Assembly (NCBI GenBank): GCA_026397315.1
Contig: JAPLVC010000006.1
Span: 117,108 to 181,107 of the forward strand
Direction: 5' to 3'
Source: Candidatus Aenigmatarchaeota archaeon
GTDB taxonomy: Archaea > Aenigmatarchaeota > Aenigmatarchaeia > QMZP01 > QMZT01
DNA: 64,000 nt
The notes beneath the pieces are model-generated. The model had not been told where the DNA came from. It saw nothing but the letters and a program-made list of their open reading frames with translations, and did not search any database. Positions within the stretch are counted from its first letter, which is position 1, and each line of letters begins with the position of its first letter. Below, piece after piece: positions 7,355 to 39,997 of this stretch. A program made the translations under genes and the position numbers.

Positions 7355-8641
7355 ATGGCAGCTCACAACGATCTTTTCATGGCGACTCTTGACAACGACG
7401 CGGGTTTCGACCTGGGCGATTTCGCCAGGAAAAGCGGCAAGAAAGCTTATTTCACGTGGCACGTCGATGAAGGCGGGGGCAGCATAAACTCCTCACCTGT
7501 CATAAAGGGCAGTCACGTTTACATCGCCTCTCTCGACGGCTACATTTACAAACTTGAAAAAGCAGACGGAAAACTGGTGTGGAAATTCAAGGCTGGCGGC
7601 ATGTTCAGTGACGCTCATCCTGTCATAAAGGACGGCATAATCTATCTCGGCTGCTATGATCACAACATGTATGCTATCGACGAAACGACGGGCGAGGAGC
7701 TCTGGAGGTTCAGGACCGGCGGCAAGATAGACGGTTCGACCGTTCTACTGATTGACGACATGGCGATATTCAGTTCAAGGGATTATTACGTTTATTCCAT
7801 ACACCGGAAAACCGGCAAGATGATATGGGCTTTCAGGACCGGCGGCTGGTCGTATTCCTGCCCAACCGAACACGAAGGTAAAATATTAGTCAGCTCCTCG
7901 GACGGCAACATGTATTGCCTTAGCAAAGAAGGCAGAGAGATCTGGAGATTCAAAACGGGCGGCAATATTTTCATGCAGGACAGGCTATGCATACGCGATG
8001 GCGTAGCTTATTTCGGTTCGGATGATTTCAACGTATACGGCGTGCGGCTTTCGGATGGCAAAGAAGCCTGGCGCTTCAGGTGCGGCAGCTACGTGAATGT
8101 CATGCCGACAATACATGACGGCATTATTTACATATCATCTGACGACGAGAATTTCTATGCAGTCGACCTGGCCACGGCAAGAACAATCTGGAAGTTCAGG
8201 ATGGGCGAGCGTGCGGCCGGCAGCATGCCGGTCATACTTGGAAACAACGTGATATTCGGCTCCGCCGACCACAACGTGTATTGTCTTGATGCAAAGACCG
8301 GCAAAGAGGTCTGGCGCTTCAAAACTTACGGCCACATTTTCGGTGAGACTGTGATTGAGAACGGCAGAATATACGTGCCTTCATACGACTGCCATCTTTA
8401 TTGCATCACTATCGATGGCGAACTGATATGGAAGTTCCGCACGTCCACCATTAGGCAGAGCACATACAAATACGAAGAGGAAACCGTCATCGAATTCAAC
8501 GCGCCCAAATTCGAGGAAACTGCAGACGAGAAAGAAGATAGGTATGCAGTCAGTGCTGAAAACGTCGTGAGCCACGATTACGCCTTCAAGAGCGAGTACT
8601 CTTTCAAATCAGAATATCAGACCAAGAGCGAGTACGCCTGA
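7355..8641 (+). CDS. PQQ/BamB-like beta-propeller repeat protein with acidic KSEY-repeat tail
   Basis: About eight repeats of Y-GS-D--vYal---tGke-W-F-tgg. Confidence 0.9.
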   Translation: MAAHNDLFMATLDNDAGFDLGDFARKSGKKAYFTWHVDEGGGSINSSPVIKGSHVYIASLDGYIYKLEKADGKLVWKFKAGGMFSDAHPVIKDGIIYLGCYDHNMYAIDETTGEELWRFRTGGKIDGSTVLLIDDMAIFSSRDYYVYSIHRKTGKMIWAFRTGGWSYSCPTEHEGKILVSSSDGNMYCLSKEGREIWRFKTGGNIFMQDRLCIRDGVAYFGSDDFNVYGVRLSDGKEAWRFRCGSYVNVMPTIHDGIIYISSDDENFYAVDLATARTIWKFRMGERAAGSMPVILGNNVIFGSADHNVYCLDAKTGKEVWRFKTYGHIFGETVIENGRIYVPSYDCHLYCITIDGELIWKFRTSTIRQSTYKYEEETVIEFNAPKFEETADEKEDRYAVSAENVVSHDYAFKSEYSFKSEYQTKSEYA

Positions 8642-15626: not shown

Positions 15627-15761
15627 GCCTCGGTGGCTCAGTGGTAATTTCGAAGGAAGCAGATCGCTTGGTATAAGCTCTTTAGGAAAGAGCTTAAGCA
15701 GAAAACGAATATTCTGCTGACAAAAAGCGAAAGGTCGCGAGTTCAATTCTCGCCCGGGGCT
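15627..15761 (+). tRNA. tRNA-Thr(GGT) with 52-nt intron at 37/38 (15674-15725) and an irregular D-arm
   Basis: Acceptor GCCTCGG/CCGGGGC, anticodon arm TCGC-TT-GGT-A|A-GCGA, T-arm GCGAG-TTCAATT-CTCGC. About 10 extra nt in the D region are unresolved. Confidence 0.8.
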
Positions 15762-21186: not shown

Positions 21187-21531
21187 TCACATTGCCCGTA
21201 TGAATTCGCATCCGGGATCGACTTCAATGAAATGATGTGCATTGCCTTCACGGAATTCGAGACACTGGTTTTCAGGCAGGTCATCAATCGTCTGTCTTGG
21301 CGAGTGCGCGACATCGCAGACCCAGTCGCTTATGCCCCATTCCGGATTGTTATCTGAAAGGCACGGGCTCCTGTCAGACATGTCGGAGCTTATCGTCGTG
21401 CATATGTAGATGCATTTTCCCTTTGCCGTTTCAAAAATCTGCTGCGTTCCCTGGCTTGTTTGCTGCGTGCAACCGGAAATGAGGATTAAACCTGCTAGCA
21501 GAAGCAACATCAATTTCATGGATTCTCTCAT
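21187..21531 (-). CDS. Small Cys-rich lipoprotein
   Basis: Lipobox LISGC; six further Cys (C-x3-C, PCLS, WVCDVAH-PR, NQC, GC). Confidence 0.8.
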   Translation of the reverse strand: MRESMKLMLLLLAGLILISGCTQQTSQGTQQIFETAKGKCIYICTTISSDMSDRSPCLSDNNPEWGISDWVCDVAHSPRQTIDDLPENQCLEFREGNAHHFIEVDPGCEFIRAM

Positions 21532-21641
21532 TGCATAATTAATTTTTGAAATTTATATTTATTCGGGCAACATATTATCATTTTTCATCTTCGATGCCGC
21601 TTCGCTAAAATGATATAAGCCGCCCTCATGAATTATCAATC

Positions 21642-22385
21642 ATGAAATTAAAATTTCATTCAAAAATTGAATTAAGCAAAAGAGATAAAGAAAAAGGTTT
21701 GATTCTGCCTAAAAAATCGTCCGAAGATCTTGCTTATTTATGTGGTGTTTTGGCTGGAGATGGAAATATTAACGTGAGAAAAGAAAGATATGATTTTGCC
21801 ATAAAGTGTGTGGGGAACCCGAAAGATGAGATTGAATTCTATGATTATGTCATCAAAGAAAAATTCCATAAAGTTTTTGGGGCTGAGATTAAACCAAAAC
21901 TGCACGATAAAGGAACTACCTATGGATTCAGTTTCTGGTCAACGTCATTGGTTAGATTTTTAAATGAAGAGATAGGTTTGCCTATTGGTAAGAAATATGA
22001 TAAGTTAAAAATCCCTTCTATTTTCAAGTCTGATAAAAAATTATCAGCGGCTTTTATAAGGGGTTTGGCTGATACTGATTTTTGTTTGACTTTCAAGAAG
22101 AATCGCAAAACAGTTCCTTATTATCCTGTCATAGTTGGAGTATCAAAAAGTGAGCTTTTTATGAAAGAAGTAATGAATCACCTGAAAGGTTTAGGTTTTT
22201 CTGTTTGTTTCGAGAATCGCAGAGAATTTGACAAAAGAGTAAACAAAAACGTTTTCACTTCAAAAATTTATCTCAATGGAGAAAAACAACTAGCATTATG
22301 GATGTCTGAAATTGGGTTTGAACATCCAAAAAATCTGAAAAAGTTCAATTCTCATATGAAATATAATAGCGGGGGATGGATTTGA
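21642..22385 (+). CDS. Free-standing two-motif LAGLIDADG homing endonuclease-family protein
   Basis: LAYLCGVLAGDG and AFIRGLADTDFC motifs; AT-rich; the stop codon lies inside the antisense of tRNA-iMet. Confidence 0.88.
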   Translation: MKLKFHSKIELSKRDKEKGLILPKKSSEDLAYLCGVLAGDGNINVRKERYDFAIKCVGNPKDEIEFYDYVIKEKFHKVFGAEIKPKLHDKGTTYGFSFWSTSLVRFLNEEIGLPIGKKYDKLKIPSIFKSDKKLSAAFIRGLADTDFCLTFKKNRKTVPYYPVIVGVSKSELFMKEVMNHLKGLGFSVCFENRREFDKRVNKNVFTSKIYLNGEKQLALWMSEIGFEHPKNLKKFNSHMKYNSGGWI

Positions 22386-22571
22386 ACCATCGACCTTTTC
22401 CCGAATCGTGATTTTCATCACGCTTCACTGGGTGTCCCACTGGAACTAGTTCCAGCGATCCTAGAGCCGCTATGGTACTGGAATCCATTGTTTTCACAAA
22501 GGATTGGCCCAGCGAGCACTCCAGGCGTTGAGAGCAACCGAATAATTCGATATGCTTTGCTCCACCCCGCT
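22367..22571 (-). tRNA. Initiator tRNA-Met(CAT) with four introns (14/15, 32/33, 37/38, 43/44)
   Basis: Exons 22571-22558, 22526-22507, 22475-22471, 22433-22428 and 22396-22367 join to AGCGGGGTGGAGCAGCCTGGAGTGCTCGCTGGGCCCATAACCCAGAGGTCGATGGTTCAAATCCATCCCCCGCTA (A1-T72 pair, three G-C pairs in the anticodon stem). Each intron has a BHB-like junction. Confidence 0.9.
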
Positions 22572-22596
22572 GTGTTATAATTTATGATAAGGAGTG

Positions 22597-22604
22597 TTTA
22601 TAAA
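22597..22604 (-). promoter_or_regulatory. TATA box for tRNA-iMet
   Basis: TTTATAAA about 26 nt upstream of the tRNA 5' end. Confidence 0.6.
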
Positions 22605-22631
22605 TAACTTTCACTGTCGCTGTAACAGGTT

Positions 22632-23171
22632 TCACTTTTTTCTAGTCGGCTTTTCCTTGTCCTCTTTTTTGTATTCCGCAGCCTTGTGTTTGTGGCTCGA
22701 AAACCTGTCGTAGAAAAGGCCTAGTATGTAGCCATACGCCACGAAGAATGCCGCGCTGATGGGTGCTAGCAGGATGAAGCGCGTCTGCACCATGAACAGG
22801 CCGCCTATGAAACCGGGGTATGCAAGTTCGCCCAGTATTATACCGGCAAGCAGCAGCAGGCAGAGGAAAATTCCCTTCTTTCTCGAGTTGCCGCCCATCA
22901 GGCTTTCATACATCAGGGCGAATATTACGGCCATTACTATGCCCACTATGATACCGCCGACTATCGAGCCTGGTATGGCGGACATCATGCCTATGTCGGC
23001 AAGCTGGTCCATGGTCATGGGTATGTTCGCGTTGGATGGTATCGCTGCCTTTATCATCTCTTTTATCTGTTCCCTGTAGAAAACGTATGAGAAAACGCTG
23101 GTTATGCCCTGCATCACACCGTAAATGATGCCTGAAACCAGCCCGGTTTTAAGCACCCTGGAAAAGTCCAT
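22632..23171 (-). CDS. Four-TM membrane protein
   Basis: Gly-rich hydrophobic helices and a basic tail. Confidence 0.8.
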   Translation of the reverse strand: MDFSRVLKTGLVSGIIYGVMQGITSVFSYVFYREQIKEMIKAAIPSNANIPMTMDQLADIGMMSAIPGSIVGGIIVGIVMAVIFALMYESLMGGNSRKKGIFLCLLLLAGIILGELAYPGFIGGLFMVQTRFILLAPISAAFFVAYGYILGLFYDRFSSHKHKAAEYKKEDKEKPTRKK

Positions 23172-23223
23172 GAATATACATGGTCTTGCGTGTTTTTATT
23201 GGTTCATACCCCATAAAATAAAT

Positions 23224-23400
23224 ATGAGCAAAAAAGGCATCATGCCGAAATGGACCCTGGCTATACTGGGCTTCCTGCTTTTGGTTATCGGGGCTTACAC
23301 AGCAATAACTTTCTTCGCGATACCAGCGTTCTTCTGGACAGGTCTGATTCTGGCAATAATAGGCATAGTGATGATATTCATCACTGCGGTTCTGCCTTGA
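23224..23400 (+). CDS. Small two-TM membrane protein
   Basis: MSKKGIMPKWTLAILG...; probable start ATG 23224. Confidence 0.65.
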   Translation: MSKKGIMPKWTLAILGFLLLVIGAYTAITFFAIPAFFWTGLILAIIGIVMIFITAVLP

Positions 23401-23416
23401 TGCGCCTGTTAAAAAA

Positions 23417-24166
23417 TTACTCTTCCACGCGCGGCGCCAGGATGAATGACAGGTGTATCTTGTCTATGTCCTTGAACACCATCTTCAGCGGGTAGTCGTT
23501 CGAGAATTCGAGAAGGACCTTGTCCGCGAACTTCGACGCCTTTATCATCTTCTTCAGGTACTCGATGGGGTAGCGGGATTTCAGCGCCTCCGGAATCTCG
23601 ATTTTATCGAGGCCATGATCGCCCCTCTTGAGTTCCATCTGGGAAGAATTCACGTCGCCCTTTGCCCATATCCTGAAGGCATGCGGCTCTCCTTCGAACA
23701 CGATAGAATCGTCCACGATGTCTGCGTCCGTTATGCCCTCTTCGAGCACGTTAGAGTCAAGCTCTAGCTTGGCCTTGAATTTGAGCTGGTCCAGCGGAGG
23801 CTTCTCTGCTGTGATGTTGAGCAGGGGAATTTCGAATTTCCTCGTGCCTTTGCCTTTCATGACGATCTCCAGCGTGTTGGAGTCGTCGTTCTTTGAAAGG
23901 GTGACCTTATCGCCGGACTTTATTCTCTTTATGACGGCTACGAGGTTCGCCAGGTTGAGGCCGAGCATGTTCTCGCCGGTCACCTTGAAATCCTCAAACG
24001 CCGTAGAAAGTAGCTGGAAATCGACAAGCGCTATCATGCTCCTGTCCGGGGAGACGAGAGAAAGGCCTTTCGCGTCGACCTTGAAAACGCCCTCGTCTAT
24101 GATCTCCGATATTATCGGTATGGAATTCTTAATCAGATCCGCATTACCCAAAGTTATCTTGAACAT
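23417..24166 (-). CDS. pcn: PCNA sliding clamp
   Basis: IIDEG-F, DRSMIALVDF-L---FEDF, YP-EYLKKM, DYPLK, FILAPRVEE. Confidence 0.97.
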   Translation of the reverse strand: MFKITLGNADLIKNSIPIISEIIDEGVFKVDAKGLSLVSPDRSMIALVDFQLLSTAFEDFKVTGENMLGLNLANLVAVIKRIKSGDKVTLSKNDDSNTLEIVMKGKGTRKFEIPLLNITAEKPPLDQLKFKAKLELDSNVLEEGITDADIVDDSIVFEGEPHAFRIWAKGDVNSSQMELKRGDHGLDKIEIPEALKSRYPIEYLKKMIKASKFADKVLLEFSNDYPLKMVFKDIDKIHLSFILAPRVEE

Positions 24167-39847: not shown

Positions 39848-39997
39848 CGCCGGGACTGGGATTCGAACCCAGGACCCCGTAAGGAGACTAGCTGTCTGGG
39901 AAAATCTCAAAACGCAAACACGGAGTTTCGTTTTTTCGATAAAGCCTTTTTCCAAAAGGCTTTCCAGGCTAGCGCGTTACCGTTCCGCCATCCCGGC
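39848..39997 (-). tRNA. tRNA-Ser(GGA) with 68-nt intron at 37/38 (39961-39894)
   Basis: GCCGGGA/TCCCGGC acceptor, CTAGC-CT-GGA-A|A-GCTAG, long variable arm, BHB helix CTGG/CCAG. Confidence 0.94.

Follow-up and report, generated by a model that had tools for sequence, protein, structure and literature searches.

An aenigmatarchaeal genome carries an initiator tRNA-Met (iMet) gene that is interrupted by four introns and overlaps a gene for a free-standing LAGLIDADG endonuclease, homologs of which adjoin iMet genes in other DPANN genomes, mostly with an intron in the same stretch of the tRNA. The locus is very probably a working single-copy iMet gene, and the sequences compared here make it reasonably probable that nuclease and 43/44 intron have spread together at the iMet gene by collaborative homing. 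All positions given without a contig name refer to the window, that is, the whole stretch of 64,000 nucleotides that was analyzed (positions 117,108 to 181,107 of contig JAPLVC010000006.1, assembly GCA_026397315.1). An earlier note on this window had described the tRNA gene and was silent on the LAGLIDADG gene at 21642-22385, the more informative part of the locus.

An initiator tRNA gene in five exons

The gene, which lies on the minus strand (a point absent from the earlier note), reads as alternating exons and introns of 14/31/20/31/5/37/6/31/30 nt (Table 1). ARAGORN calls the joined 75 nt tRNA-Met(CAT), and the product has the cloverleaf and the marks of an initiator, namely, A1-U72 and three G-C pairs (29-31/39-41) at the foot of the anticodon stem; C33 and a discriminator A are also present. 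Compared with the intron-free iMet of relatives, 68 to 72 of the 75 positions are identical. The earlier note had arrived at the same five exons, with the anticodon on the 5-nt one, and our parse agrees with it exactly in the size and position of each intron. Its account of the helices also holds: the central helix has 4 bp in introns 2 (CTGG/CCAG) and 3 (CCCA/TGGG, complete only once intron 2 has been removed), and 3 bp plus a mismatch in introns 1 and 4. The helix of intron 2 involves the 5' side of the anticodon stem, and introns 1 and 4 have an inner helix as well.

Table 1. Features of the iMet locus, in window coordinates
Feature	Position	Strand	Description
iMet gene	22571 to 22367	-	205 nt
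Exon 1	22558..22571	-	tRNA positions 1-14, 14 nt
Intron 1	22527..22557	-	31 nt at 14/15, hairpin, relaxed BHB (3 bp + G.A)
Exon 2	22507..22526	-	Positions 15-32, 20 nt
Intron 2	22476..22506	-	31 nt at 32/33; 4-bp central helix, 5-bp inner helix
Exon 3	22471..22475	-	CCATA, positions 33-37, 5 nt (C33, CAU anticodon, A37)
Intron 3	22434..22470	-	37 nt at canonical 37/38; 4-bp central helix, no regular inner helix
Exon 4	22428..22433	-	ACCCAG, positions 38-43, 6 nt
Intron 4	22397..22427	-	31 nt at 43/44; relaxed BHB (3 bp + A.A), GAAA-capped hairpin
Exon 5	22367..22396	-	Positions 44-73, 30 nt; CCA not encoded
BRE and TATA box	22597..22612	-	TTTATAAA at 22604-22597, read from sequence; likely promoter of the iMet gene
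LAGLIDADG endonuclease gene	21642..22385	+	Free-standing, two-motif; 247 aa, GC 32%, Pfam LAGLIDADG_3
AT-rich spacer upstream of nuclease	21532..21641	+	89-90% identical in L137, L140, and L142 (neighboring gene, 72-77%); likely nuclease promoter

A generic intron-aware parser ranked the five-exon structure first, and none of 100 shuffles of the 161 inner bases matched its score (54.9 versus 41.1 ± 4.5); an earlier, looser version of the parser favored wrong parses, and parser ranking alone is no proof. Rival parses (two or three longer introns, a 44/45 boundary, or other anticodons) obtained lower scores from the stricter parser and are contradicted by empty sites in relatives (see below). 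Misassembly, which the earlier note had considered, left no sign at the locus, where a 16.5-kb Logan contig (depth 24, possibly from the source run) is identical to the window over 21500-23500. Short contigs match parts of the gene exactly, in a run of another study over 22442-22592 and in a second sample of the same study over 22473-22737. The four-intron iMet gene is real and its parse correct, and it probably functions. The BRE and TATA motif from which it is likely transcribed is also found upstream of iMet in the sister genome. As the earlier note had expected of standard annotation, neither ARAGORN nor Rfam calls the gene in the window, and with introns in 56 of the 61 iMet genes parsed in the order, such initiator tRNA genes are easily missed.

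The host genome amounts to 1.05 Mb in 7 contigs (91% complete), and the closest named relatives of the PCNA gene located 850 nt upstream of iMet are Aenigmatarchaeota. Another iMet gene, for which the earlier note had suggested looking, was not found in this 91%-complete genome, and the locus is the only initiator tRNA-Met found; elongator tRNA-Met and tRNA-Ile(UAU) have separate genes. Among the approximately 40 tRNA genes parsed, iMet is the only one with four introns.

Introns of the iMet gene in relatives

The sister genome (G087/L002), with PCNA 97% and EndA 95% identical, has an identical intron 1, and an intron 3 with one change (36/37 identical). Its sites for introns 2 and 4 are empty, and it has a T-loop intron not shared with the gene studied here. 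Intron 1 is absent from G086, G088, and G089, and the first two of these have an identical mature 75-nt iMet with one other intron apiece. Intron 2, absent from the sister, is identical in G089 (EndA 78%) and at locus L140. The splice points of introns 1, 2, and 4 are thus fixed by relatives that are free of them, and, since relatives with an uninterrupted anticodon arm have C33 too, this base is a lineage trait and no parsing error. The 5-nt exon 3 was also found in G078, G079, G080, and G089 and at 11 metagenome loci.

The 61 iMet genes parsed in the order contain zero (5 genes), one (14 genes), two (17 genes), three (18 genes), or four (7 genes) introns, and 182 of 185 parsed iMet introns have a 3- or 4-bp central helix, with boundaries chosen partly by this same criterion. 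In a metagenome scan for the 32/33 intron, one locus (L133) proved to be interrupted at the same four positions, and three others had five introns each, at 14/15, 32/33, 37/38, 43/44, and 59/60 (Ga0315275_10000160, SMTZ1_10000556, and Ga0180438_10003076; the 43/44 helices of the last two are weak, with 2 bp). A fourth five-intron iMet lies on JACPVU010000062.1. Homologs of intron 4 occur at 8 loci, with changes on both sides of the inner pairs (pairs were tallied from intron alignments for introns 1 and 4 only), and a search allowing up to 3 mismatches did not find intron 4 in 370 other genomes of the class. Introns in general are better conserved than the flanking genes. Very long introns were also noticed in iMet genes of relatives, a 255-nt T-loop intron with internal repeats at L119 (G064) and introns of 97 and 115 nt, possibly composite, at L024 and L025.

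These comparisons bear on whether the locus could be a relic, with the true iMet gene lying in the 9% of the genome that is unassembled. Some six further tRNA types are likewise not found: tRNA-Trp, Pro(TGG), Arg(GCG, CCG), Leu(CAG), and Thr(CGT), which are either unassembled or too interrupted for the parser; Pro(TGG) and Thr(CGT) are found in the sister. Against a relic, the exons match the mature iMet of congeners without a difference, and the locus is in synteny with the one iMet gene that each relative has. Compensatory changes are seen in the intron helices, and versions with four or five introns occur repeatedly, all of which makes a pseudogene here extremely improbable.

Splicing enzymes and predicted order of intron removal

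The genome encodes a single EndA of 395 aa (C1:34562-35746), which matches the ARMAN-2 EndA (4FZ2) from end to end (E, 3e-104) and has the catalytic Tyr, His, and Lys as well as the ASL lysine in place. By its sequence, this enzyme, the type of which the earlier note had left open, is an epsilon2 EndA of broad specificity; a specificity-loop lysine is required for cutting strict and relaxed motifs (Hirata et al.). An RtcB ligase is also present (E, 7e-157). The 205-nt precursor would be cut by EndA at its four BHB or relaxed-BHB junctions, and RtcB would join the ends.

Folding predictions make it quite probable that introns 1, 2, and 4 would leave the primary transcript before intron 3. For introns 1, 2, 3, and 4, forcing the BHB in the precursor cost 0.7, 2.3, 13.3, and 0.6 kcal/mol, respectively, and the cost for intron 3 dropped to 6.5 kcal/mol after removal of intron 2 and to 4.7 kcal/mol after removal of introns 1 and 2, still ca. 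5 kcal/mol in the best intermediate of what is a rough model. Keeping intron 4 to the last would raise its cost to 2.4 to 3.1 kcal/mol. Intron 3 behaved alike in L133, L140, and L142. The earlier note had argued that the full BHB of intron 3 forms only after intron 2 is removed; the folding prediction supports the dependence, with the drop in cost just described, and the reason given was incomplete, for the helix of intron 3 already has 3 bp in the precursor, like those of introns 1 and 4. The larger predicted effect is that intron 3 lacks a regular inner helix and relies on the anticodon stem for its outer one; one strand of that stem is occupied by intron 2 and the other by intron 4. Intron 3 is thus predicted to be the last one cut, following removal of intron 2 and formation of the anticodon stem. 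In agreement with this, in sets not selected for such an intron, each of the 11 genes interrupted at 43/44 or 44/45 also had an intron at 29/30 or 32/33, versus 23 of 62 others, a co-occurrence that hitch-hiking across short exons would produce as well.

Nested introns with ordered removal have already been described (PMC3978253), and in C. merolae the motif at 37/38 is the final substrate (PMC3728597). The iMet gene would offer a small, naturally occurring substrate on which an epsilon2 enzyme removes several introns in order.

A mobile LAGLIDADG gene at the 3' end of the tRNA

The LAGLIDADG gene converges on the 3' end of iMet and has its stop codon in the T arm, with a 19-nt overlap; its GC content contrasts with ca. 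50% in the surroundings. The predicted structure (pLDDT, 95) has the two-motif homing-nuclease fold (alpha-beta-beta-alpha-beta-beta-alpha) and matches I-Tsp061I (E, 2e-9); further fold matches are archaeal intein nucleases and the bifunctional maturases 1p8k and 2ab5. Catalytic aspartates D40 and D146 are invariant across 121 homologs, and the second motif ends in D-T-D-F, not D-x-D-G.

The gene is absent from the sister genome, which likewise lacks introns 2 and 4. In three hosts (L137, L140, and L142), the nuclease is 86 to 91% identical to the one studied here, and their flanking genes are 72 to 77% identical. Among these four, nuclease dS was 0.31 to 0.62 and dN was 0.02 to 0.05 (dN/dS ratio of about 0.07), while the flanking genes had dS values of about 1.3 to 2.4 or were saturated. 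The nuclease dS lies far below that of the flanks and the dN/dS ratio is low; therefore, the nuclease has moved between species under selection. The LAGLIDADG gene is, on these comparisons, optional, horizontally spread, and under purifying selection. The AT-rich spacer upstream of it travels with the gene and is likely its promoter. No viral carrier was found in viral contigs with this query.

Association of the nuclease with introns in one part of the tRNA

We took 12 homologs of the nuclease (about 47 to 87% identity) blindly from a protein search and then inspected their contigs. All 12 adjoin an iMet gene, and 11 of these genes (one, at L180, parsed by eye) have an intron at 43/44, 45/46, 47/48, or 53/54, versus 12 of 58 nuclease-free genes (p, 6e-6), a background drawn from the order, whereas the blind set includes other DPANN lineages; this and the following p values treat kin as independent. 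Within the order itself, all three carriers have an intron at 43-54 (at 43/44 or 44/45), again versus 12 of 58 (p, 0.013). Introns at the 5' end, 29/30 to 32/33, 37/38, and the T loop showed no enrichment beside the nuclease (p, 0.35 to 0.75). The one exception in the blind set, L185, adjoins an intron-free iMet with a variable loop and T stem of different sequence, and no nuclease lies beside any of the three intron-free iMet genes that have enough flank. More distant homologs (33 to 36% identity) adjoin other tRNA genes, one of which, Ile in G003, has a 16/17 intron only. The partner introns in the blind set share neither a common sequence nor an exact position, and the occurrence of unrelated introns at four different positions suggests that the association arose independently several times.

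Could the protein instead be a maturase, which would bind the precursor and aid EndA at a weak 43/44 junction? The 43/44 helix has only 2 to 3 bp in the clade, and bifunctional maturases are among the fold matches. This reading is nevertheless quite improbable: introns at 43/44 or 44/45 occur with no nearby copy of the gene in L138, L143, G029, and G059 (the last two having no homolog at an E value of 1e-30 with this query), the catalytic aspartates are invariant, horizontal spread and AT-rich composition suit a selfish nuclease, and the diversity of the partner introns in sequence and position also speaks against it.

A different LAGLIDADG family is found upstream of iMet in relatives, where an intron at 7/8 or 14/15 is present in 6 of 6 carriers versus 17 of 55 others (p, 0.002). 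Its members often lie, as at L002:7570-8190 (nuclease at 7628-8176), L003, and L011, behind the tRNA promoter and a duplicate of the first 12 nt of iMet, which could be the ribosome-binding site of the nuclease, and a full tRNA copy comes after the ORF. A third family was seen at L133 and L150 (G089), 77 to 97 nt downstream of iMet and co-directional with the tRNA, and both carriers have 32/33 and 37/38 introns. RNase HII adjoins the nuclease-iMet pair at 8 of the 12 blind loci (L177-L187), a conserved neighborhood in other DPANN. Elsewhere in the genome studied here (G000), another LAGLIDADG ORF (C1:57528-58262, minus strand) has its end on base 1 of a tRNA-Ser(GCT) gene without introns, the counterpart of which in the sister has a 29/30 intron.

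A collaborative-homing model

A free-standing nuclease has to leave the chromosome that encodes it uncut, which an intron placed in the target achieves. In the reading that we favor, free-standing LAGLIDADG nucleases would target the conserved single-copy iMet gene, which would owe its introns in part to such targeting. The nuclease at 21642-22385 would recognize the intron-free sequence around tRNA positions 43-54, and the 43/44 intron would split this site and render its carrier immune. Repair of a cut intron-free allele would then copy in the nuclease gene and the intron jointly, by co-conversion, and neighboring introns would hitch-hike across the 5- and 6-nt exons. The upstream family may act likewise near the 5' end of iMet in relatives. 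Such homing covers the spread and retention of introns, not the first origin of one.

The alternative is that introns arise and are kept independently as a host defense against elements for which tRNA genes are sites of integration or cleavage, in which case the nuclease would survive where the target is protected and would carry no introns. In line with this, homologous 43/44 introns are found with no copy of this nuclease at L133, L138, and L143, and conservation is generally higher in introns than in the flanking genes. Nor does the similarity of intron 4 track nuclease dS: the introns of G000 and L142 have 28 of 31 positions in common at a dS of 0.60, and those of L137 and L142 are more distant at a dS of 0.35. 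Strict agreement between the trees of nuclease and intron 4 was sought without success; the four low-dS hosts all have homologous 43/44 introns, with discordant pairwise similarities. On the other side, an intron-protected allele would be a poor entry point for homing because it cannot be cut, yet the nuclease has spread between hosts whose flanking genes are saturated in dS, and intron 2 is identical in G000, G089 (EndA 78% identical), and L140 and missing from the sister (95%). Weighing both, we regard independent host defense as unlikely.

In a broader form of the homing model, which we consider just slightly favored, several free-standing LAGLIDADG families in DPANN, each targeting a different stretch of iMet, would spread small protein-spliced introns, successive sweeps would stack up to five of them, and the short exons between them would tie them together as blocks that can be spliced in one order only. 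If true, this would be a DNA-level route for ORF-less archaeal tRNA introns between species.

Comparison with known systems

The earlier note gave three introns as the most described per gene. That was the maximum for an archaeal tRNA gene in 2011 (PMC3239211), and it has been overtaken by Asgard genes with four introns, some called by tRNAscan-SE (PMC11291895 Supplementary Data 4, 2024), and with up to five introns in one gene (bioRxiv 10.64898/2026.10.13.758758), which rule out a record in intron count for this gene. In the literature searched, we found no report of four- or five-intron tRNA genes in DPANN. The multi-intron tRNAs known from Thermoproteales and ARMAN, which have one to three introns (PMC3239211), are alike in their short BHB and relaxed-BHB introns at canonical and noncanonical sites, in a broad-specificity EndA (epsilon2 as in ARMAN-2), and in nested introns with enforced order (PMC3978253), whereas here there are four introns (five in relatives) and exons of 5 and 6 nt back to back. 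Unlike in the intron transposition of Thermoproteales, no donor copy of or intron similar to any of the four was found in other tRNA genes of the genome. The Asgard list includes a three-intron iMet and, by its coordinates, a four-intron gene with a 7-nt internal exon, comparable to the short exons of this gene, which belongs to another phylum (DPANN, Aenigmatarchaeota).

The mechanism by which archaeal tRNA introns spread was called unknown in a 2014 review (PMC4090602), and a recent study tested three arrival routes, none of them general, with homing nucleases unmentioned (bioRxiv 10.64898/2026.10.13.758758); they are not mentioned by Chan et al. (2011) either. We found no paper in which free-standing LAGLIDADG genes drive tRNA introns of archaea, in a search that covered mostly nonsubscription literature and is a weak negative. 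Collaborative homing has been described for phage group I introns (PMC2988022), and in that system, in F-CphI (PMC6083498), and in T4 SegB in a tRNA region, the nuclease gene likewise lies outside the intron and beside a conserved target gene, the intron of which would interrupt the nuclease site. The present putative case differs from these phage systems in being chromosomal, archaeal, and LAGLIDADG based, with protein-spliced BHB introns of about 20 to 45 nt at several positions within an 11-nt window. I-DmoI and I-Tsp061I (from rRNA BHB introns), PI-PfuI, and TliVMA (intein) share the two-motif monomeric fold and are the best sequence and structure matches, at about 15 to 21% identity; in contrast to them, the nuclease described here is free-standing, tied to iMet, and outside any intron or intein. 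The intron count is of modest interest, and it is the link to a mobile nuclease that makes the open question testable, with a named protein and a predicted target window of ca. 11 nt that are amenable to a cleavage assay.

Other tRNA genes of the genome

Several other tRNA genes of the same genome also deserve mention. tRNA-Thr(GGT) (15627-15761, plus strand) has a 37/38 intron that is absent in the sister, and it is ca. 29 nt shorter than the sister's gene, missing the 3' part of the 20/21 intron and exon positions 21-26; either a hairpin collapsed in the assembly or the gene is broken. A tRNA-Leu with an AAG anticodon (C3:50144-50282, minus strand; L128) also occurs in the sister, and the helix of its 37/38 intron pairs with the AA of the anticodon. 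A34 is rare in archaea. The T-loop introns of tRNA-Asp(GTC) (C3:187524-187633) and tRNA-Ser(CGA) (C5:46910-47068) share a core hairpin and are absent in the sister, which makes copying between tRNA genes within the genome likely. A hairpin that recurs as a side branch in many long tRNA introns of this genome, AAGCYTTTT-loop-AAAAGGCTT, may be a small mobile repeat, with hosts Ala-GGC, Ser-GGA (39848-39997), Tyr, Glu-CTC, Pro-CGG, and Gln-CTG. Finally, tRNA-Ser(TGA) (C4:33596-33862, minus strand; L126) spans about 270 nt with three introns, of which the one at 37/38, about 120 nt long, contains box C/D-like motifs and is conserved in the sister.
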